A DNA stretch of 64,000 nucleotides. Source: Escherichia phage LF82-41. Below are positions 12,311-60,209 of the stretch, in pieces; positions within the stretch are counted from its first letter, which is position 1; every line of letters begins with the position of its first letter. Made by a program: the position numbers and the translations under genes. Below the pieces are notes generated by a model. The model saw nothing but the letters and a program-made list of their open reading frames with translations. It did not search any database and was not told where the DNA came from. The stretch lies in the sequence record PV660463; one strand, written 5' to 3'.

Positions 12311-12338
12311 ATCTAAAGCAAAAAGGGCCGAAGCCCTT
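12311..12338 (-). terminator. rho-independent terminator
   Basis: AAGGGC-cgaa-GCCCTT hairpin followed by T-run on minus strand. Confidence 0.45.
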
Positions 12339-12762
12339 ATTTAAATTTAATTTTCTGAAGTGCATCAATTGCAGCCAGTCGCCCTTGTTCACTTTTAACT
12401 GTAATGACCACATCGCCTGATACGATCACCGAACCATCAACAAATTCTATAGAGCCTTTTTTGAAATCAACAGATGTATCTGGTTCCGGAACTTCTTCAA
12501 AGAATTTAAATTCTGCACCATAAAGCAGAATATCACCTTGCATACTATGAATAGTTCGGCCATAATCGCCTACGGCTTCTACAGCAATCACTGAAACGCC
12601 GTAACCAATCATCTCTTCTACAATAAAATCTTTGGACAATAAAGTAGTATGCAGATTAGTATTAAGACGTTTACCAGTCGTATTAAGAATTCTCAAGAAA
12701 TTATCTTCCTGTCCTTTGATAATACGATATTTCTTACCAACTTCAAAACCTTTAAAAGCCAT
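12337..12762 (-). CDS. hypothetical protein (141 aa)
   Basis: ORF track. Confidence 0.5.
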   Translation of the reverse strand: MAFKGFEVGKKYRIIKGQEDNFLRILNTTGKRLNTNLHTTLLSKDFIVEEMIGYGVSVIAVEAVGDYGRTIHSMQGDILLYGAEFKFFEEVPEPDTSVDFKKGSIEFVDGSVIVSGDVVITVKSEQGRLAAIDALQKIKFK

Positions 12763-12946: not shown

Positions 12947-13375
12947 TTATTCCTTAAAATGTGCTTTCAACATTTGATACAAAGACCATGCCTGGTCGTT
13001 ATTTTCGATAGTAATCGTCATCACAGGAAATTCAGACAATTCGTCAAGTTCGTCAGAATCTTGCTCTTCAGACTCTTGATATGGATTTCCAACTTCATCA
13101 AAAAACTCTGCTTCACTAGTAGAGAGCCAGATAAAGTTTTCATCAAGAATATCACCACCTGTCGCGTATCCAACCATGCCAGTAGATGTCACAATTTTAG
13201 TAGGACGTCCAAGATGGTCAACATCTAATACTTTAAATGGTTCCATGCCAAGACGTCGTGCATAAATCCCATTATCAGTATGGTCTTTAATAAACTCTTC
13301 TTGGGCACGTTTATCTTTAAATTGGTACCATGAGTTAACGCGGAATTTATTAGCCATTAGTAAGTTTCCTTCCAA
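12947..13375 (-). CDS. hypothetical acidic protein (142 aa)
   Basis: ORF track. Confidence 0.5.
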
Positions 13376-13584
13376 TAAGTTGTACCGTTTTCAGTGATTT
13401 CACGGAAGATACCATAGATAGGCATTTCATCACCGAGTTTTTCGTAAACGTAAACCACTTCGGTGTAGCATAAAAATTCGGTCCAGCTTTTCTGTACAAC
13501 AACTAAATCAGGATTAAACAGAACATCTTCAAACTCATCGATGTTTGAATCAGTAGTTACGTTTTTAATGATTTGACGTTTCAT
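13357..13584 (-). CDS. hypothetical protein (about 75 aa; start at internal Met with GAGGAG RBS)
   Basis: Track ORF N-terminus is read-through of promoter element; AGAGGAG RBS precedes Met at 13584. Confidence 0.45.
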
Positions 13585-13610
13585 AATATTCTCCTCTTGT
13601 TTTGATAGGT

Positions 13611-13642
13611 CTATAGTATCATAGACCATAGTTGTTGTACAT
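13611..13642 (-). promoter_or_regulatory. early-type promoter, family 1
   Basis: TGTACA - spacer - TGaTACTAT + AGACCTATC on minus strand. Confidence 0.45.
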
Positions 13643-14166
13643 CATTTTAGCAAAATAAAATCAACTTGTTCTGCCAATGAACGTCTAAACATTAATTGAC
13701 AACTTCCGAGGATGAAATCAGGTGCTTCATAGACCGCGATGTAGTATCCTTTAGCTTTCAAGAGTTCAACATCCACTTGGTCATCAAACCATGCATAAAC
13801 CGCGTCAACACTTTCAAATCCAAAATAGAACCCTTGAGCCCAATCTTCGTTCAATTCAAATGTGTGCTCAATTCTATAGTATCTTAAGATATTTTGTTCA
13901 AGGAGTTTGTCTTCATTTACTGTAGGACGATTAGGGACATTATAGTTGTCGCCGTGATGGTAGAAGTTACCTGAGAGTATTCCATGCTTATCAAGGAACT
14001 CCCATGTTTCTTCAGAGTTGTCGGTGCCCGACCAACCGTATGGCGAACGAGGTTCTTTATTCCAAGAGGTTTCCCAAATTCTGACGGCTTTACCATCTTC
14101 GATAGCAACTCCTGGTAAAGATTCACGTTGAGTGCAAAAACTACGTTCTACGCGGTAAACTAACAT
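13642..14166 (-). CDS. hypothetical protein (174 aa)
   Basis: ORF track. Confidence 0.5.
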   Translation of the reverse strand: MLVYRVERSFCTQRESLPGVAIEDGKAVRIWETSWNKEPRSPYGWSGTDNSEETWEFLDKHGILSGNFYHHGDNYNVPNRPTVNEDKLLEQNILRYYRIEHTFELNEDWAQGFYFGFESVDAVYAWFDDQVDVELLKAKGYYIAVYEAPDFILGSCQLMFRRSLAEQVDFILLK

Positions 14167-14225
14167 ATTATTCTCCTCTGGTTGATATGGTTATAATATC
14201 AAAAACAGAGGAGAAGTAAACAACT

Positions 14226-14645
14226 TTATGCAAAAGATGCTGGACAATATTTTTTGATTTGGAACTCAGGAACTACCATGAACTGTCCAGCGAAAACGAT
14301 GTTATAAAGCTTAACACCATCTTCTACCCAACGGTCGCTAATAAATCCGGCTATTTGCTTAGTTTTCCATGGCGTTCCATCAGTTGCAGCATCAATAGTA
14401 AATTCATGGTCTTTTACAACTAAAACAGACCTGCATAGTTTCCATTTGAACGCTTTTTCTTCTGGTTCAATGAATTGGCTTTTAACGTAACCAATGTTGC
14501 CATCAGCATCACGAACTTTAACTTCATTGCGACCAAAAACAGGATCACTTACATAAAGAACTTCAACCAACTTACCAGCAACTTTAGAGCGAGAAGCATC
14601 CGATACGTGTACGTAATCACCAATAGAGAGATTTACAATATTCAT
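14226..14645 (-). CDS. paralog family protein 1 (139 aa)
   Basis: Shares SASRSK.AG.LVEV and FISD.WVEDG.KLYNIVF blocks with 14655..15110. Confidence 0.55.
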   Translation of the reverse strand: MNIVNLSIGDYVHVSDASRSKVAGKLVEVLYVSDPVFGRNEVKVRDADGNIGYVKSQFIEPEEKAFKWKLCRSVLVVKDHEFTIDAATDGTPWKTKQIAGFISDRWVEDGVKLYNIVFAGQFMVVPEFQIKKYCPASFA

Positions 14646-14654
14646 AATAATTCC

Positions 14655-15110
14655 TTAAGCTTTACGAGGAGACACATAGCGAGTGATTTCAGATTCTTTA
14701 ACAACTCGGAAGTCACCTAAGAATACGATATTGTATAACTTTTCACCATCTTCAACCCATTGGTCACTAATGAAGCCACACATAATATCAGTTTTGTTTG
14801 GATAACCGTATTCATCGATGAAGTCAAATTCTTTATCAGTCTGGAATTCAACACCTTTGCAAAGGGCCCATTTGAACTGTACATTGGGTTCAGTAGAAGC
14901 AAAATGAGCGCTCACATGAGTTTCCAAGAATTTAGGACTTACGTAAGCGTACTGAGTTTCAGTTTTTCCAGAACTAGGAATGATTCGAACTTTAACTTCT
15001 TTAACACGACCAGTACCATTAGTACGAAGTCCTACCACTTCAACTAGACGACCTGCAGCTTTAGAACGAGATGCAGACGATACACGCTTAATTTCACCAA
15101 TAGTAATCAT
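14655..15110 (-). CDS. paralog family protein 2 (about 151 aa, start at internal Met)
   Basis: Paralog of 14226..14645; family-2 promoter overlaps the track ORF N-terminus. Confidence 0.55.
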   Translation of the reverse strand: MITIGEIKRVSSASRSKAAGRLVEVVGLRTNGTGRVKEVKVRIIPSSGKTETQYAYVSPKFLETHVSAHFASTEPNVQFKWALCKGVEFQTDKEFDFIDEYGYPNKTDIMCGFISDQWVEDGEKLYNIVFLGDFRVVKESEITRYVSPRKA

Positions 15111-15138
15111 AATTTCTCTCTCTTTGTTTAAGTTGAAT

Positions 15139-15170
15139 TCATTATACTCCATCCGTCCTTGGATGTACAA
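15139..15170 (-). promoter_or_regulatory. early-type promoter, family 2 (TTGTACA...GGAGTATAAT)
   Basis: minus-strand TATAAT at 15141-15146 with TTGTAC about 18 nt upstream. Confidence 0.5.
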
Positions 15171-15172
15171 CA

Positions 15173-15667
15173 TTAATTAAGGATATTAACCACAGCACTA
15201 CGTGGAACTACACTAAAATCACCTGCATGAACAACGTTCAGAAGTTCAACACCGTCTTCAATCCACTGATCAGTTACCCATCCATTTACTGGACCAGCGA
15301 ATGGTCGTCGAATTGAAACATATTTACACAACAAATCAGTAGGCTCAATAGGCTTAATCAGAGTACCATACATACAAGCGATATCCATATCAATACAGAT
15401 GTCTTTAACAGGTTCTACTTCTTCAATCAACAGTTCAAAGTCGGTGCTTGGAAGGGCGGTAGTAGAAATTGTACCATATGAATTTTTAATTTCTAAGAAT
15501 AACCAAGGGCCTTCAACTTGTTTGATGAAGTTAACAATAGTGAAACTATTACCTTGAGTGGCACCTAAAATTTCACAAAACTTTTCATAAGCTCGCACTG
15601 AAGCACCGTACCAGTTGATTTGTTTTTCATCTTTCAGGATGTAAGTAGCCGTGGTATTGATATTCAT
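15173..15667 (-). CDS. paralog family protein 3 (164 aa)
   Basis: C-terminus GWVTDQWIEDGVELLNVVHAGDFSVV aligns with the other two paralogs. Confidence 0.55.
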   Translation of the reverse strand: MNINTTATYILKDEKQINWYGASVRAYEKFCEILGATQGNSFTIVNFIKQVEGPWLFLEIKNSYGTISTTALPSTDFELLIEEVEPVKDICIDMDIACMYGTLIKPIEPTDLLCKYVSIRRPFAGPVNGWVTDQWIEDGVELLNVVHAGDFSVVPRSAVVNILN

Positions 15668-15693
15668 AATATTTTCCTCTCGTTAAGATAGGT

Positions 15694-15725
15694 TCATTAT
15701 ACTCCAACCATCCTTGGTTGTAAAC
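15694..15725 (-). promoter_or_regulatory. early-type promoter, family 2
   Basis: GTTTAC (15720-15725) - N18 - TATAAT (15696-15701) on minus strand. Confidence 0.5.
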
Positions 15726-15730
15726 TGGTT

Positions 15731-16408
15731 TTATCGCTGTTTTACACTTAACGGGTCAGGATTCTCAGGGACATCTTCAAGGCCAAGCGCATAACGCTGA
15801 GCATATTTTAACATCAAAATATCTTTAGCACAATCGTGAATACTATCATGGGCAACGAATCCTTTTAGCGTACCCATCGGTAATGGACACATACTTAATC
15901 CTCGTGTCAACGAGTAAGCTTCGATTGCCGTACGAATATCACGTTGAGCCCAGAATTTAACAGGTTCTAATTTATCGGTATCAATATCTGGTTCAAGAAC
16001 ACCTTCATCACGATAGAGGTCACGAATCAAATCGACCAAGATAGGGAAGTCAAAGCTCATACCACGGCACCACATCTGTGATTTCCATTGGTCAACTTTA
16101 TTAGCTCGACAATAATCTAAAAAGATTTTAATGCCTTCAAGCGTAGTGACATCGTCTTCAGACGGGGCCAGGTTTTTACGTGCTTCTGCTGATTGTTCTT
16201 TCCACCATTTCATAGTGGATTTAGCGAAAACTCGCTTCCCTTTTTGAGAAGCTAAATTAAATTTAATTCGCTTACCTCGTTGAACAAGTTCTTCAAATGT
16301 TTCAACAACATCAGGGTCCGAATTATATGCAATAACCGCAAGGTCAATAACAGCAGCTTTTGACGTATTGCCGAATGTTTCAAAATCTATAATAACATCA
16401 GTGCTCAT
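15731..16408 (-). CDS. dexA: exonuclease A (DnaQ-like 3'-5' exonuclease)
   Basis: 225 aa; N-terminal IIDFETFG exo I motif; T4 DexA size and position next to dda. Confidence 0.75.
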   Translation of the reverse strand: MSTDVIIDFETFGNTSKAAVIDLAVIAYNSDPDVVETFEELVQRGKRIKFNLASQKGKRVFAKSTMKWWKEQSAEARKNLAPSEDDVTTLEGIKIFLDYCRANKVDQWKSQMWCRGMSFDFPILVDLIRDLYRDEGVLEPDIDTDKLEPVKFWAQRDIRTAIEAYSLTRGLSMCPLPMGTLKGFVAHDSIHDCAKDILMLKYAQRYALGLEDVPENPDPLSVKQR

Positions 16409-16417
16409 AATTTTCTC

Positions 16418-17731
16418 TCAAATAAAATGGACGTCAAAACGACCACGAGTTGTGCCGACATACAATAACTGTTTAGCTAGTTCTGAATCGGCATAATGGA
16501 TACACGGTGTATAAACAAAGGCCGTGTCAACAGACATACCCTGGGCCTTATGGAAGGTTGATACTGGTAGTGCCTTCACCTTAGTGAACATGCGTTTAGC
16601 ATCCCAGAATTCGCTCCATGGAGCTTTACCACCTTTATTCCAGAATTTGTATGTTTCTGCAGTCTTAGCCAAAAACAAATTGAATTTATAAAGCTCTTCT
16701 TCAGAAGAAATAACCTTTATATCTTCGCGGACGTATTCTTCATCATCGCCATATGTTTCTACTGTAAGATTCCAGTATCGTATCATATATTCGCCTGAAA
16801 CACCACGTGCTTTAACAAATGTAGACGTTTCTACGGCATCTCGAATACGAACGAATTGCCCGTTATTGAAAAGCATTTCAGACATATTTTTGCCATCTAG
16901 CTTATACGTCTTGGTAAACGGCTCTTGTAGAACAATGACCTCGTCTTTAATAAATGGCTTTTCTGTTTCGAGAAGTTTTCGGCGAATAATTGAATTTAAC
17001 TTGTCCACCGACTTATTTGTGAATGCCATCATTCGATTTTCGAAAAGGTCTTCAGGAGTTTTAACGACATTAAAATAGTTCATCATATATGATTTAAGGT
17101 CTGTATATCCATGAACACCGTGCCCATCAACTACTTTATCATAAATCCATTTGCCATTACGAATATCAGTCGCAACATCAATAATTGGTGCATTGCTACG
17201 TTTAACTTCTGTAAGGTTGCATTGCACGAAGTCTTTGTGAGTGAAGAAAGGACTTAGATACGCAGTTGATTCGCCTGGGTCTACCGGTCGAATCTGGCAT
17301 CGGTCACCAATTCCAATTACTGTACACCATTTAGGGATACTAGCTAACATTATTTTAAACAGAGAACGGTCACACATTGACGCTTCATCAAATAACAGTA
17401 CACGACACAAGGCTAAGTCGGGAACCTTTTTCTGTTCAAACAATACGTTTTCTTCGTATGTGGTTGGGTTGATTTTAAGAATGCTATGAATGGTTGATGC
17501 TTCTTGACCCGCAAGTTTGCTTAGAACCTTTTTAGCAGCATGTGTAGGGGCTGCTAAAATAATACCTGATTCTCCAGAAGAAATAAGGGCTTCAACGATG
17601 AATCTAGTAAGGGTTGTTTTACCTGTACCGGCAGGTCCATTAATAGTTACATGATGTTTCTTTTCTTTAATAGCTTCCATAACAACGTTGAAGGCGTTTT
17701 TCTGGCCTTCAGTCAAATCATCAAATGTCAT
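16418..17731 (-). CDS. dda: Dda DNA helicase (SF1B)
   Basis: 437 aa; Walker A GPAGTGKTT; T4 Dda size and synteny. Confidence 0.9.
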   Translation of the reverse strand: MTFDDLTEGQKNAFNVVMEAIKEKKHHVTINGPAGTGKTTLTRFIVEALISSGESGIILAAPTHAAKKVLSKLAGQEASTIHSILKINPTTYEENVLFEQKKVPDLALCRVLLFDEASMCDRSLFKIMLASIPKWCTVIGIGDRCQIRPVDPGESTAYLSPFFTHKDFVQCNLTEVKRSNAPIIDVATDIRNGKWIYDKVVDGHGVHGYTDLKSYMMNYFNVVKTPEDLFENRMMAFTNKSVDKLNSIIRRKLLETEKPFIKDEVIVLQEPFTKTYKLDGKNMSEMLFNNGQFVRIRDAVETSTFVKARGVSGEYMIRYWNLTVETYGDDEEYVREDIKVISSEEELYKFNLFLAKTAETYKFWNKGGKAPWSEFWDAKRMFTKVKALPVSTFHKAQGMSVDTAFVYTPCIHYADSELAKQLLYVGTTRGRFDVHFI

Positions 17732-56881: not shown

Positions 56882-57186
56882 TATAATGTTCTCTCAAAAT
56901 TGTGGAAGCATTTACGGCATTTCAATTTCAAGTTATCAGTGGTCCAGTTAACCAGTTGGACTTGGATAGTTCCACATTCCGGACATGGGTGTTTTGCTGC
57001 CGATTTGGCAGCATTTTCACGTCGTTCAACCATTTTCATGATTTCGTTCCATGCCGGAGGAACGAACTCTTCTTCATCGTAGATATTATCTCGCTGAACA
57101 AATTCAATCTTTGAACTATCATCAATAAACTTAACTAAGCCATGATTAGTGCTCATATCAATATCCTCTAGAAGACGTAGTTTCAT
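56881..57186 (-). CDS. zinc-ribbon protein (101 aa)
   Basis: CPECG...CRKC. Confidence 0.45.
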   Translation of the reverse strand: MKLRLLEDIDMSTNHGLVKFIDDSSKIEFVQRDNIYDEEEFVPPAWNEIMKMVERRENAAKSAAKHPCPECGTIQVQLVNWTTDNLKLKCRKCFHNFERTL

Positions 57187-58136
57187 TATAAAACCTCAAT
57201 GGCATTTCGTAAACCGTCCGCTTTCGCATTCAGAGCTTTTAACGATTTAGTTTGTTCTGCAATCTGGGCTTCGACTTCTTTCAGACGAGATTTGAGGTAC
57301 TCGCGTTCTTCAGCCATGATATCAACCTTTTCTGCTTTAGGTTCTTTAATAGTCTTAAGTTTATACTCGTTAGGGTTCTTCAGCTTAATTCGGGTGCGAG
57401 AACTGTATAACATTGAACCGTTATCTTCGGATTCGTCGAACGTTTCAACAACATCCATAGTCTCTAACAATGTAATAAGTTTATAAGACAATGAACGAAC
57501 GGTTTTGTTATGCTTATTAATTTCTTCAGCTTTCATGGTACCGAGATTACGTGAGTAGTAATAAGGAACCTGGATATCAATTGATAATGATGCGTTACCA
57601 TTACCAGTCGGTTTGAATACTGCAGTAACCCAATCTTTAACATGAACTTTATTTGTACGACCATCACCGCCCGTGAATAATTTACGAGAATGTTTAAAAA
57701 GCATATTCACTTGGTTATTGAATTCACAAGCAAATTTATCAGCAAATTTAGTTTCAGGAATGGTAGATAACCAATCAGCCAAATGAGTCTTTTTAACATC
57801 ATTAACAATAGTGAATTCAACCAAATCAGTTTTAGATGTCACAGATTTAATAAAGCTAGGCTTCATAAAGTTTTTAATGTTATCGCGAGCTACAGTAGAA
57901 GATAATAAACGAGAACGTTTGAACCATTGAAGCAGTGTCCCTAATGAATGAGAATACGCATTCTGAGTATCTTTACAAATATGATTTTCTTGGCCTGTGT
58001 ATGTACCAAAATCGCGAAGAATACCACTTACTACATCTCGGTGTGGAACATCAAATCCTAGTGCACCAACAGCGCGCTGGGCATGAACGTTAGCGATAAG
58101 ACCGGCAAAGTATTCAATGTAATGTGAACGTGTCAT
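57186..58136 (-). CDS. hypothetical protein with C-terminal coiled coil (316 aa)
   Basis: ORF track; own family-2 promoter; heptad-like C-terminus. Confidence 0.55.
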   Translation of the reverse strand: MTRSHYIEYFAGLIANVHAQRAVGALGFDVPHRDVVSGILRDFGTYTGQENHICKDTQNAYSHSLGTLLQWFKRSRLLSSTVARDNIKNFMKPSFIKSVTSKTDLVEFTIVNDVKKTHLADWLSTIPETKFADKFACEFNNQVNMLFKHSRKLFTGGDGRTNKVHVKDWVTAVFKPTGNGNASLSIDIQVPYYYSRNLGTMKAEEINKHNKTVRSLSYKLITLLETMDVVETFDESEDNGSMLYSSRTRIKLKNPNEYKLKTIKEPKAEKVDIMAEEREYLKSRLKEVEAQIAEQTKSLKALNAKADGLRNAIEVL

Positions 58137-58162
58137 AATATTTTCCTCTCGTTAAGATAGAT

Positions 58163-58194
58163 TCATTATACTCCAACCATCCTTGGTTGTAAAC
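58163..58194 (-). promoter_or_regulatory. early-type promoter, family 2
   Basis: GTTTAC (58189-58194) - N18 - TATAAT (58165-58170). Confidence 0.5.
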
Positions 58195-58198
58195 TGAT

Positions 58199-59158
58199 TT
58201 ATGATTTTAATGCATTCATTGCGTTAAAAAGTTTAGAGTACTGCAACTGGAGATTCGTTACAACACTTTGAGCATCACGAAGCTTAGCTTGTGCTTTGTC
58301 AAGTTCAACGGACAGTTGGTCTACAGTAGCCTTGATTTGATTGTAATGGTAATCTTCGACCGGAAGAAGGTCATTAGAAACATTTAGTTTTACTGCAGAC
58401 AGTTTGCACACATTTGGCAAACCTTTAAACATTGATTTTCCCGAAGTAGAATATGAACCTAGAACTTCAGCATTACCAATCGGGGTTGCAGTAATTGACG
58501 CTTCAAATGTTGCATTTTCCTTTTTAAGATTTTGATAGTATTCAGAGTCTTTGTGCCACCACGGCGCAGGAACCTTTTTACCAATAGATACACGAGCCTG
58601 GATAGCGATATGGCCCTTATTCTTGATAGGGTAGATAATATTAAGCTCACGAGAATAAATTGCTTTAATCTGGTGGATATTATCACCTAAAACTTCCAAC
58701 GCTTGGTGGAATACACGAGCAACGTTATCATTCTTAGGTTTATACGTAAGAGTGAACTCGTTCTCACTGATAACCATGATTTCTAACTTATCGTAAGTAT
58801 ATTTCAAATGTTTCATGTTAATTGCTTGAGGACGAATACGAGAAGCAATGGCCATCAGATTGTTAAGGTTATTCCGGAACTGCTTAGCGAAATATTGACC
58901 TTCACCGCCAATACAAAAATTACGAAGTTTCTGTTTGGCCAATAAACGGCTGAACTCACCATTTTTAATGAACTCTTTAACGGGTGTGTTAGTAACGCAT
59001 TCAAATTGGGTAAACATACGAGAAGTAATCCCATAATATGAACAGATTTCCTCAATCTCTTCAGGAGTCTTTACAGGCATACGGATAGGATTAGGTCCTG
59101 GAGTGTATGCGTTCGAGGTAAATTCTTTGATAAGTTCTCTACGTGTAATAAAAGCCAT
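58199..59158 (-). CDS. hypothetical protein with C-terminal coiled coil (319 aa)
   Basis: ORF track; own family-2 promoter. Confidence 0.55.
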   Translation of the reverse strand: MAFITRRELIKEFTSNAYTPGPNPIRMPVKTPEEIEEICSYYGITSRMFTQFECVTNTPVKEFIKNGEFSRLLAKQKLRNFCIGGEGQYFAKQFRNNLNNLMAIASRIRPQAINMKHLKYTYDKLEIMVISENEFTLTYKPKNDNVARVFHQALEVLGDNIHQIKAIYSRELNIIYPIKNKGHIAIQARVSIGKKVPAPWWHKDSEYYQNLKKENATFEASITATPIGNAEVLGSYSTSGKSMFKGLPNVCKLSAVKLNVSNDLLPVEDYHYNQIKATVDQLSVELDKAQAKLRDAQSVVTNLQLQYSKLFNAMNALKS

Positions 59159-59182
59159 TTTATATTCCTCATGTTGAAAAAT

Positions 59183-59215
59183 TTATTATACTCCAACCAT
59201 CCTTGGTTGTACATC
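59183..59215 (-). promoter_or_regulatory. early-type promoter, family 2
   Basis: TTGTACA...GGAGTATAAT on minus strand. Confidence 0.5.
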
Positions 59216-60209
59216 ATTCCTTAAGAAGTTTTACTACTTGAATAAGATTAGCTCGTTCTGTTTTATTTTTACCGTTTAAGCCTGCTAATCGTGAGATTTC
59301 ATCGTCAGTCTGTTGAATAGTTACATTAAGTTCGTTAATCAAAGCTTCAAAGTATTTGATTTGCTCAGCATGTTTTGATTCAAATTTCTGAACAGGAATA
59401 ACATCTTGGTTCAGTTCATCAATAAGGTCTTTAAGAGCATCTTCTTGGTTGATATCATATTCAACTTCTTTTATTTCTTCAAAGAGCTCGTCTTTATATC
59501 TAACGTCTTTTAGTCCTGGAGCTGGTCCTGAAATCTCTTCTTTAAGAGTACAAACATACCCAATACGGTATCCAATGCAGTCTCGCTTGATATCAACTTC
59601 GTCGATAAATCCACAATGTTTAAGACCAGAGCCGATTATGTCAAAATATCCTTGACGTCGTCCTTCAAACGTTACACGAACTACTAAGACAGTTTTACCA
59701 CCAACCTTTTGAAGCTCACATTTATAAAAGTCTGTTGAACCTGAATAACGTGGATGAGTTTTAAAGTTCATCTGACGATCTAGGCCCATTTGTAAACGTG
59801 CTGTTACGGCCATAAAACGTGTTTGGTTCTCGTTAAGATGAGCAACAATCCATTTCAAAGGCATTTTACACTGTTCACGACCGAACAAATCAGTACGTCC
59901 TAGATTACGCAGGATGTTGTTAGAGTTAATCATCGACAGAACGTTAAGTTTATTCAGCGCGCTGAAGATTCCGTCAGCCATTGATTTCCCATAACCTTTA
60001 CACGCTTTAATAAGTGCTCGCGGCAGATTAGTATAGATTTCAGACGGCATATGAAAATCAAATTTACTAGTCAGTAATTGATGAACTTGGATAGCAATTT
60101 GCTCATAATTAAGTGCTCTGCGATCGTTATGGTCTTTAAACCACACTTTAATCTGTGAAGCACATAAACCGTTAATTTCATGTTTTACCGCATCAGATGT
60201 AATGCTCAT
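59214..60209 (-). CDS. hypothetical protein with C-terminal coiled coil (331 aa)
   Basis: ORF track. Confidence 0.55.
   Translation of the reverse strand: MSITSDAVKHEINGLCASQIKVWFKDHNDRRALNYEQIAIQVHQLLTSKFDFHMPSEIYTNLPRALIKACKGYGKSMADGIFSALNKLNVLSMINSNNILRNLGRTDLFGREQCKMPLKWIVAHLNENQTRFMAVTARLQMGLDRQMNFKTHPRYSGSTDFYKCELQKVGGKTVLVVRVTFEGRRQGYFDIIGSGLKHCGFIDEVDIKRDCIGYRIGYVCTLKEEISGPAPGLKDVRYKDELFEEIKEVEYDINQEDALKDLIDELNQDVIPVQKFESKHAEQIKYFEALINELNVTIQQTDDEISRLAGLNGKNKTERANLIQVVKLLKE

Follow-up and report, generated by a model that had tools for sequence, protein, structure and literature searches.

Three adjoining open reading frames on the minus strand of a T4-type phage genome share blocks of sequence, and two of them are preceded by almost the same promoter, which raises the question of what these genes are and whether the promoters were duplicated together with them. 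The stretch of DNA analyzed here (the window, 64 kb) comes from an RB69-like Mosigvirus and is 99.4% identical to phage ATK47; from dexA to motB.2 its identity is 99.4% with ATK47 and 95.5% with RB69. The original prediction placed a tandem triad of paralogous genes at 14226-15667, and these coordinates are exact: the three minus-strand frames lie back to back at 15173-15667, 14655-15173 and 14226-14645. What it missed is their identity, as these genes belong to the motB family, which has been named and published. The genes of the locus are listed below.

15173..15667, minus strand: motB.1, 164 aa (PHROG 2333, E 1.7e-82; PF17613, E 1.5e-8, C-terminus only)
14655..15110, minus strand: motB, 151 aa (PF17613, E 2.5e-38, profile positions 2-157 against residues 22-167 of the long ORF)
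14226..14645, minus strand: second motB copy (copy 2), 139 aa, ortholog of RB69ORF010c 'similar to motB' (PF17613, E 3.8e-23; PHROG 1671, E 1e-51)
13642-14166, minus strand: motB.2, the next gene, named as in the RB69 annotation (no Pfam match; PHROG 1106)

The gene order dda, dexA, motB.1, motB, copy 2, motB.2 agrees with the RB69 annotation; the T4 annotation has the same gene names and order, but with a rearrangement. Orthologs are present in syntenic position, and the motB cluster of the window is located between dexA and cef in the early region of a Tevenvirinae genome. Very probably, the triad is the early-gene cluster motB.1 > motB > motB-like (RB69ORF010c) of an RB69-like T4-type phage, including the account of its domain, history and promoters developed in the following. 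The cluster sits on the minus strand with dexA on one side and motB.2/cef on the other. The literature as well as Pfam and PHROG already cover the family, the C-terminal domain common to its members and the additional motB gene of RB69-type phages. Two motB genes, motB.1 and a 29-aa peptide have been described in RB69, together with a C-terminal domain common to MotB and MotB.1 and differing N-terminal domains (Patterson-West et al., 2021, PMC7827196, sections 3.1-3.2). T4 carries only one motB, whereas this published RB69 arrangement of two motB genes and motB.1 is exactly that of the window. The triad by itself contributes nothing new, and the by-products of its analysis are of modest value.

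Two further candidates in this region were rejected. The neighboring motB.2, which is listed as 'transcriptional regulator' in some GenBank records, is not a fourth member of the triad, since PF17613 does not match it and its PHROG is a different one. For non-coding RNA at 13000-17000, Rfam returned a Y_RNA match of 26.6 bits against a gathering score of 38 bits, which is below threshold and was taken as chance.

How far the likeness among the three proteins extends was assessed by several comparisons. All three exceed the curated gathering score of 25 bits of Pfam PF17613 (MotB, 'Modifier of transcription'), scoring 131.9 bits (motB), 82.6 bits (copy 2) and 35.1 bits (motB.1, matched in its C-terminal part only). 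Using BLASTP, motB and copy 2 align over their full length (45% identity, ~148 columns, E 2e-31), and motB.1 aligns with either of them only in 29-36 C-terminal residues (E 2e-10 to 3e-10). An hhalign comparison of the two subfamily profiles gave 98.5% probability (E 3.9e-15), limited to 51 C-terminal columns. It could be argued that the likeness is a chance or compositional effect, since the block in common with motB.1 is short, and nothing further speaks for it; against E-values of 2e-31 and about 1e-10, the hhalign probability and the Pfam score passed by all three, the probability of this explanation is practically negligible. The similarity that the original prediction had proposed is significant, and its description of a tandem triad of paralogs with a C-terminal motif holds for the C-terminal domain, but only two of the genes are full-length paralogs and the third shares this domain alone. 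Of the two blocks it named, SASRSK.AG.LVEV occurs in motB and copy 2 and is absent from motB.1, whose N-terminal domain is unrelated, and FISD.WVEDG.KLYNIVF fits two proteins literally, while a relaxed form, WVTDQWIEDGVELLNVVHAGDFSVV, occurs in the third.

The central gene encodes a protein with the full two-domain architecture (PF17613 positions 2-157), consisting of a basic KOW-like N-terminal domain (computed pI 10.7) and the shared C-terminal domain, which is acidic here (pI 4.7). The protein shares 48% identity with T4 MotB, which has the same two domains and comes from the same early dispensable dexA-cef region; T4 MotB has 162 aa, and the window proteins are shorter (motB 151 aa, copy 2 139 aa). 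The start of motB is the conserved ATG at 15110 (MITIGEIK...), giving the 151 aa annotated in RB69 and RB3. A form of 172 aa starting at the TAATG overlap with motB.1 was rejected: RB3 does not conserve the extension, which also lacks a Shine-Dalgarno sequence and lies outside the family profile. This reading is too long because its first 21 codons are promoter and 5'UTR DNA.

Judged by its sequence, the motB.1 of the window is an ortholog of T4 MotB.1, as it is 46% identical to the intact T4 protein (143 aa, from MT984581) over 162 columns (E 1e-46), immediately precedes motB, as in T4, and ends in the same C-terminal domain. The AlphaFold2 model (pLDDT 78.1) has a predicted N-terminal beta-barrel (~1-85) unrelated to MotB, a linker of low confidence that carries IDMDIACMYGTLIKP, and the shared C-terminal domain (~107-164; window 15176-15349). 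In contrast to T4 MotB.1, the window protein contains a 20-aa linker insertion with the motif DMDIACMYGTL. The N-terminal 85 residues had no match to PF17613, so that the full architecture of KOW and C-terminal domain is not present; because these residues match nothing, motB.1 is a relative of the MotB family by its C-terminal domain only. The N-terminal domain of MotB.1 has been described as LSm-like, together with other phage proteins of LSm-like fold (GoF and Frd.2), and T4 strains whose motB.1 carries an amber mutation or a deletion showed no phenotype (PMC12152347).

Furthermore, the gene is intact in the window, whereas 1-nt insertions within the WIEDG motif cut short the reference MotB.1 entries, leaving 119 aa (13.8 kDa) in T4 and 132 aa plus the 29-aa ORF012c in RB69. 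Read as ATTGAAGATGG without the extra G, the T4 frame would encode 143 aa, with a calculated mass of about 16 kDa. T4 MotB.1 most likely has 143 and not 119 aa, and the RB69 'ORF012c' represents the end of motB.1 behind the frameshift. This correction of the annotation bears on experiments that use a reference-based construct. The 88-93% DNA identity of the motB.1 C-terminal domain across genera had raised the suspicion of a constraint at the nucleotide level, which was rejected, since T4 and the window have synonymous differences at 8 of ~22 codons. Because synonymous codons vary freely between the two, the constraint acts on the protein.

The second part of the question concerns the promoters. 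Near-identical promoters in front of two genes of the triad had been predicted, and they are present before motB.1 and motB. These two genes do not form the closest paralog pair. The consensus scan and the search for further copies gave the following sites.

15696..15724, minus strand: early sigma-70-type promoter of motB.1 (11/12 in the consensus scan; -35 TTTACA, 17-nt spacer, -10 TATAAT)
15141..15169, minus strand: early promoter of motB, inside the spurious 21-codon extension (10/12; -35 TGTACA, 17-nt spacer, -10 TATAAT)
58162..58191, minus strand: third copy of the cassette, before an unrelated 316-aa gene (57186-58136)
59182..59211, minus strand: fourth copy of the cassette, before an unrelated 319-aa gene (58199-59158)
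14193..14220, minus strand: weaker promoter-like site before motB.2 (TTTACT, 16-nt spacer, TATTAT)

From the position of its promoter we infer that motB.1 is transcribed from near 15689. The spacer of this promoter contains a 6-bp inverted repeat (CAACCA-AGGA-TGGTTG); in the motB promoter the repeat reads CATCC..GGATG, with substitutions in the two arms that complement each other when compared with the remaining three copies. These repeats fold weakly (5-6 bp, -3.1 to -5.5 kcal/mol). The window has four copies of the cassette, against none expected by chance. The motB.1 and motB promoters belong to this repeated early-promoter cassette, which serves unrelated genes as well, and are not relics of the gene duplication. 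By BLASTP, the gene following the 58-kb copy and the one following the 59-kb copy showed no similarity to each other, and no relation of either to MotB was found.

The claim that the duplication included the promoter did not hold up. Promoter and gene could have been copied as one unit, with the two promoters as relics of a tandem duplication, and their agreement at 27 of 30 core positions, 555 nt apart and before two members of one family, speaks for such an event. However, the cassette also stands, some 43 kb away, before two unrelated genes, and in the stretch that begins with the -35 element and ends with the ATG the motB.1 copy agrees with the 58-kb copy at 62 of 63 positions (98%), but its identity to the promoter of motB is only 76%. 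The coding likeness between motB.1 and motB is confined to a core of ~36 codons with 54% nucleotide identity, which is far more diverged than the promoters, and the true full-length duplicate, copy 2, is the one without a promoter. Moreover, phage RB3 has a T4-type promoter joined to an RB69-type motB, so that promoter and gene assort independently. We consider a joint duplication very unlikely and prefer the repeated cassette.

Such a cassette calls to mind the PeSL (promoter-early stem-loop) elements of T4-type phages (Arbiol et al., 2010, PMC2839356; Comeau et al., 2014, PMC4122927). Like these, the copies in the window are near-identical strong sigma-70-type early promoters in plastic early regions before small unrelated genes, and they likewise coincide with a recombination junction (RB3 versus the phage of the window). 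Unlike PeSLs, they lack a separate GC-rich terminator stem-loop and have instead the short inverted repeat of 5-6 bp inside the spacer between -35 and -10; on the minus strand at 13000-17000 neither a terminator-like site nor a PeSL stem-loop was found beside the promoters. By this comparison, the cassette resembles PeSL in action but falls outside the PeSL definition, because no separate GC-rich terminator stem-loop adjoins the promoters. Cassettes that assort independently of the genes they drive are in keeping with modular exchange in T4-type phages as proposed for PeSL.

For copy 2, the consensus scan of 13000-17000 matched no promoter directly upstream. Its start lies 9 nt past the motB stop with an AGGA Shine-Dalgarno sequence ahead, and because of this spacing and the missing promoter match copy 2 is probably co-transcribed with motB and read from the motB promoter. 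The protein has the two-domain architecture, with PHROG 1671 matched at positions 2-166 and the N- and C-terminal halves each matching PF17613. Its identity to T4 MotB is about 39% and, in contrast to the T4 protein, its N-terminal domain is not basic (pI 5.7; C-terminal domain pI 8.7); two loops are missing as well. Because of this different charge distribution and the missing loops, copy 2 may not act like MotB.

The same features, together with its shorter length (139 versus 151 aa) and the missing promoter of its own, could be taken as signs of a redundant duplicate that decays to a pseudogene. However, the frame is intact, and dN/dS of 0.09-0.14 versus RB69 and RB3, which is lower than for motB itself, indicates that copy 2 is under purifying selection. 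Frequent frameshifts or stop codons among natural isolates, or a dN/dS near 1, were not seen in copy 2. Of 754 phage records with motB, 207 contain copy 2, among them that of the Tequatrovirus RB3, and its length of 139 aa is kept across two genera; the AlphaFold2 model is confident (pLDDT 83.7). Decay thus appears extremely improbable, and these data speak for a functional gene.

All three proteins end in one shared domain, a predicted small beta-barrel with the core D-Q-W-x-E-D-G-x-x-L-x-N-x-V-x-x-G, preceded by a KOW-like barrel in MotB and copy 2 and by a different barrel, described as LSm/SH3-like, in MotB.1. An exhaustive HMM search of 1.84 billion proteins found a tiny family of 27 clusters at 50% identity, in nearly all of which the match to this domain is at or near the C-terminus. 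Among solved structures, nothing significant emerged when PDB sequences were searched with profiles of the two subfamily alignments. The domain has been called OB-fold-like, of the cold-shock type, and both domains were left as possible DNA binders (PMC7827196), but judged by our models it may be SH3/Tudor-like rather than an OB-fold. The resemblance to readers with tandem SH3-like barrels (53BP1 tandem Tudor, Spt5 KOW6-KOW7, KIN17 tandem SH3-like) concerns the fold only, with 9-20% sequence identity, and implies neither homology nor a shared ligand.

We assume that an old duplication of a gene with KOW and C-terminal domain, followed by a swap of the N-terminal domain in one copy, may have given rise to motB.1, and that a later tandem duplication of motB may have produced copy 2, which purifying selection retains. 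It is also possible, though we hold this only tentatively, that the C-terminal block does not descend from a whole-gene duplication but is a mobile domain, shuffled or converted between neighbors and fused repeatedly to new N-terminal domains. In line with this, MotB.1-type C-terminal domains that are 74-88% identical stand behind at least four N-terminal architectures (143-145, 164-169, 177-183 and 245-252 aa), distant family members join a KOW N-terminal domain to a MotB.1-type C-terminal domain, and the locus is visibly mosaic between genera. Within the window, however, the C-terminal domains of motB.1 and motB share only ~44-55% identity as protein and 54-59% as DNA, and because they are so diverged at both levels a recent conversion between the two genes did not take place. 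A recent transfer of DNA is further countered by the freely differing synonymous sites of the motB.1 domain in T4 and the window mentioned above, which point to selection at the protein level. Shuffling and duplication are compatible, as the replacement of an N-terminal domain after duplication, as in our two-step scheme, is itself domain shuffling.

As to function, DNA binding without sequence specificity, co-purification with H-NS and StpA and toxicity upon overexpression are known for T4 MotB only (PMC6070864, PMC7827196), which also raises the burst size about two-fold (Patterson-West et al., 2018, PMC6070864). By homology to T4 MotB, which alters the H-NS footprint, the proteins of the window may play an early role in host takeover, and a MotB-like function is predicted for the RB69-type proteins by transfer at 48% identity. 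Because of charge and conservation, it seems feasible that DNA is bound by the basic KOW-like N-terminal domain, while the shared C-terminal domain, which is acidic in MotB and MotB.1 and conserved very strongly, would be a common module for docking or assembly. A more far-reaching proposal, which we regard as rather unlikely, is that this module, acidic in MotB and MotB.1 and under extreme constraint at the protein level, is an SH3/Tudor-like docking domain and not an OB-fold DNA binder, that it tethers interchangeable N-terminal domains (KOW-like, LSm-like and others) to a common target such as H-NS/StpA, and that the T4 and RB69 references halve it by 1-nt errors. If this is true, published work on the 13.8-kDa 'MotB.1' may concern a protein without the C-terminal half of the conserved domain. 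Our data suggest a testable division of labor in this family, with the basic KOW N-terminal domain acting on DNA and the conserved C-terminal domain on a partner.

The original prediction that three contiguous open reading frames within 14226-15667 form a family is confirmed with corrections. In the open reading frame listing the locus is organized as follows:

16418-17731, dda, ahead of the triad
15731-16408, dexA, ahead of the triad
15173-15667, minus strand, motB.1, 164 aa
14655-15173, minus strand, open reading frame listed with 172 aa, contains motB
14226-14645, minus strand, second motB copy (copy 2), 139 aa
13642-14166, open reading frame of 174 aa, after the triad

All three proteins exceed the 25-bit threshold of Pfam PF17613 ("motB, modifier of transcription"), with scores of 131.9 (motB), 82.6 (copy 2) and 35.1 bits (motB.1). 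Using BLASTP, motB and copy 2 are 45% identical over the full length (E 2e-31), and only 29-36 C-terminal residues of motB.1 align with either of them (44-55% identity, E 2e-10 to 3e-10). A profile-profile comparison of MotB (29 sequences) with MotB.1 (27 sequences) gave 98.5% probability and an E-value of 3.9e-15, limited to the C-terminal 51 columns. Furthermore, PHROG 1671 ("MotB-like transcriptional regulator") spans motB and copy 2 end to end; motB.1 is assigned to PHROG 2333, and no more than its last 38 residues match PHROG 1671. The similarity is therefore real, but the term paralogous triad holds for the C-terminal domain (C-domain) and not beyond it. The C-terminal block is the only one common to all three proteins, in the relaxed form D-Q-W-x-E-D-G-x-x-L-x-N-x-V-x-x-G, whereas the second proposed block, the N-terminal SASRSK.AG.LVEV, is found in two of the three.

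Megablast of 13600-16450 against phage genomes matched 460 records with Enterobacteria phages ATK47/ATK48 at the top (99.4% identity) and RB69 at 95.5%, and the window therefore stems from an RB69-like Mosigvirus. The gene order in the RB69 record is dexA, motB.1 (plus a 29-aa "ORF012c"), motB, RB69ORF010c ("similar to motB"), motB.2, cef and goF, and in T4 it is dexA, motB.2, motB.1, motB and cef. RB69 has been reported to have two motB copies, one motB.1 and a peptide of 29 aa that corresponds to the C-terminal core (Patterson-West et al., PMC7827196), so that the triad is, in the light of earlier publications, a known arrangement of a known, annotated gene family. Downstream of cef, goF and a second open reading frame of ~141 aa, equivalent to RB69ORF005c, are located on the minus strand at 12337-12762 and 12947-13375. 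The RB69ORF005c equivalent opens with a sequence (FEVGKKYRI...) resembling that of the small beta-barrel proteins encoded nearby, and may also belong to the GoF/Frd.2/MotB.1 N-domain family.

In the 172-aa open reading frame, the first 21 codons were rejected as part of MotB: the family profile starts at residue 22, the start is annotated at MITIGEIK in RB69 and RB3, and these codons are not conserved as protein in RB3 and hold a sigma-70-type promoter. MotB therefore extends from 15110 to 14655 (151 aa). The promoter elements are:

15169..15164, minus strand, -35 element TGTACA
15146..15141, minus strand, -10 element TATAAT, after a 17-nt spacer

Copy 2 starts 9 nt past the motB stop codon and is preceded by an AGGA Shine-Dalgarno sequence; a promoter scan revealed no promoter-like site ahead of it on its own strand. 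Judged from the sequence, copy 2 would be co-transcribed with motB.

Two near-identical promoters ahead of two family genes had also been predicted correctly, as the motB.1 promoter (15724..15696) matches 11 and the motB promoter (15169..15141) 10 of 12 consensus positions. The 30-nt core TACA-N-CCAAGGAYGGWTGGAGTATAATGAA of this promoter cassette occurs four times in the window, with 0 occurrences expected by chance:

15138-15167, minus strand, cassette core
15693-15722, minus strand, cassette core
58162-58191, minus strand, cassette core
59182-59211, minus strand, cassette core
57186-60209, minus strand, three genes in a row, similar in size (316, 319 and 331 aa) and assigned to PHROGs 1435, 2351 and 2257, none of which has a known function

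The two cassettes at 58-59 kb lie ahead of the 316-aa and 319-aa genes, which belong to different PHROGs and resemble neither each other nor MotB. Two of the three genes in 57186-60209 thus have a cassette of the motB.1/motB type, and BLASTP detected no similarity between neighbouring pairs of the three. This distribution does not fit a duplication that included the promoter, as had been suggested. Between the -35 element and the ATG, 62 of 63 bases of the motB.1 promoter are shared with the 58-kb copy, but its identity to the motB promoter is only 76%; the common coding core of motB.1 and motB has only 54% DNA identity, and copy 2, the youngest duplicate, lacks a promoter.

A comparison of RB3 (NC_025419.1, a Tequatrovirus) at 1440-2925 with window positions 14226-15730 revealed a mosaic between genera. 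RB3 contains a T4-type motB.1 and a T4-type promoter (TTTACAAACTCTTGGGACCAGAGTATAAT), which is joined to an RB69-like motB 5' part, as well as an RB69-type copy 2. In 60-column windows, its motB is 97-100% identical to ours from ~15122 to ~14978, which covers the 5'UTR and the first third of motB, and the switch is located at the promoter/5'UTR boundary. Cassette distribution, identity pattern, the promoterless copy 2 and this junction together argue that the motB.1 and motB promoters are not relics of gene duplication. The cassettes behave similarly to the promoter-early stem-loop cassettes of T4-type phages (PMC2839356, PMC4122927), but the defining adjacent terminator stem-loop was not found at the motB.1 and motB promoters in a scan of the locus; the window cassettes have just a 5-6 bp inverted repeat within the spacer. 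This repeat between -35 and -10 reads CAACCA-AGGA-TGGTTG, and complementary substitutions in both arms keep it intact in the motB cassette (CATCC..GGATG). The repeat may be a dyad to which a protein binds, or just reflect shared ancestry.

To survey copy number, we used copy 2 as tblastn query, which matched 961 places in 754 phage records, 207 more places than records. The best match reaches 80% identity to copy 2 or more in 207 records, and those of this group that were listed all have two places; therefore, 207 phages evidently carry motB and copy 2. In the other 547 the best match has less than 60% identity, and those listed all have a single place, so that motB is evidently the only copy in these phages. 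Having two copies is typical of Mosigvirus and is also seen in RB3. The dN/dS ratio against RB69 and RB3 is 0.09-0.14 for copy 2 and 0.21-0.24 for motB. Copy 2 is thus under purifying selection and a maintained gene rather than a decaying duplicate.

Both reference annotations of motB.1 are affected by frameshifts. RB69 (AY303349.1, 3070-3566) has two 1-nt insertions compared with window positions 15173-15667, where the 164-aa gene is intact. This explains the 132-aa "motB.1" and the 29-aa "RB69ORF012c" as one split gene and thereby the orphan 29-aa "Category 3" peptide of Patterson-West et al. (2021). The T4 reference (AF158101.6 = NC_000866.4; 2292-2651 and downstream to 2215) contains one additional G, TGGATTG(G)AAGATGG, reading ATTGGAAGATGG where the sequence is otherwise ATTGAAGATGG. 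Therefore, the reference MotB.1 has only 119 aa (13.8 kDa) and breaks off halfway through the conserved WIEDG motif (...DQWIGRWR*), with the remaining 28 codons intact in the next frame. None of the 13 further records listed under T4/T4T has the extra G, and it is also missing from the near-identical RB55 and RB59. These records encode a 143-aa MotB.1 with the full C-domain, annotated in MT984581.1 (95-526) and identical to the sequence on 256 contigs. The published MotB.1 experiments (PMC12152347) refer to the coordinates of NC_000866.4 and to a product of 13.8 kDa, so that the frameshift bears on the question of whether the C-domain was complete in these constructs.

Only 27 clusters were recovered when the three C-domains were used for an exhaustive profile search of 1.84 billion representative proteins, and in nearly all clusters the match is at or near the C-terminus. 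Homologs whose MotB.1-type C-domain is 74-88% identical carry various N-terminal parts, in proteins of 143-145, 164-169, 177-183 and 245-252 aa. In many distant members a MotB-like KOW N-domain occurs together with a MotB.1-like C-domain, and these proteins contain the linker motif D-x-D-V-A-S-M-Y, which the window MotB.1 shares as IDMDIACMYGTL:

15370-15414, linker motif, MotB.1 residues ~89-103; homologs P0029-P0060, P0228, P0231, P0234, P0237

In MotB.1-type proteins the motif D-[MFT]-D-[IV]-A-[CS]-M-Y-[GL]-T is located either in the linker, immediately ahead of the C-domain, or at the very N-terminus. Distant KOW-type members likewise have it in their linker, and it may be a short partner-binding peptide motif. 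The mixed architectures and the common linker motif suggest that MotB and MotB.1 diverged from a common ancestor of the KOW-linker-CTD type, and MotB.1 would then have gained a new N-domain. The MotB.1 N-domain has been grouped with GoF and Frd.2 in an LSm/SH3-like family, and no phenotype was found for T4 motB.1 mutants (Kim et al., 2025, PMC12152347).

AlphaFold2 models were fair to good (pLDDT 83.7 for copy 2, 78.1 for MotB.1). Each half of copy 2 is modeled as four strands, a 3-10 turn and a fifth strand, and the MotB.1 C-domain, behind a disordered linker (residues 86-106), has the same pattern (strands 116-119, 127-137, 140-147, 150-155 and 159-163). On the basis of these models, the published OB-fold assignment of the C-domain may be questioned, but is not overturned. 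The new value is modest, namely the corrected motB.1 annotation in T4 and RB69 and this suggested re-reading of the fold. The N-domain is strongly basic in MotB (pI 10.7) and near-neutral in copy 2 (5.7); the C-domain is acidic in MotB (4.7) and MotB.1 (4.65; whole protein 4.5) and mildly basic in copy 2 (8.7). Between T4 and our phage the MotB.1-type C-domain is almost invariant as protein, while synonymous sites differ. DNA binding by T4 MotB is not sequence-specific and extends to both unmodified and modified DNA; the protein also co-purifies with H-NS and StpA, and it increases burst size twofold (Patterson-West et al., PMC6070864). Because of charge and conservation we assume, with moderate to low confidence, a division of labour in which DNA binding would reside in the KOW-like N-domain and the C-domain would act as a module for docking or assembly with a conserved partner, for which H-NS/StpA would be the obvious candidate given the T4 data.
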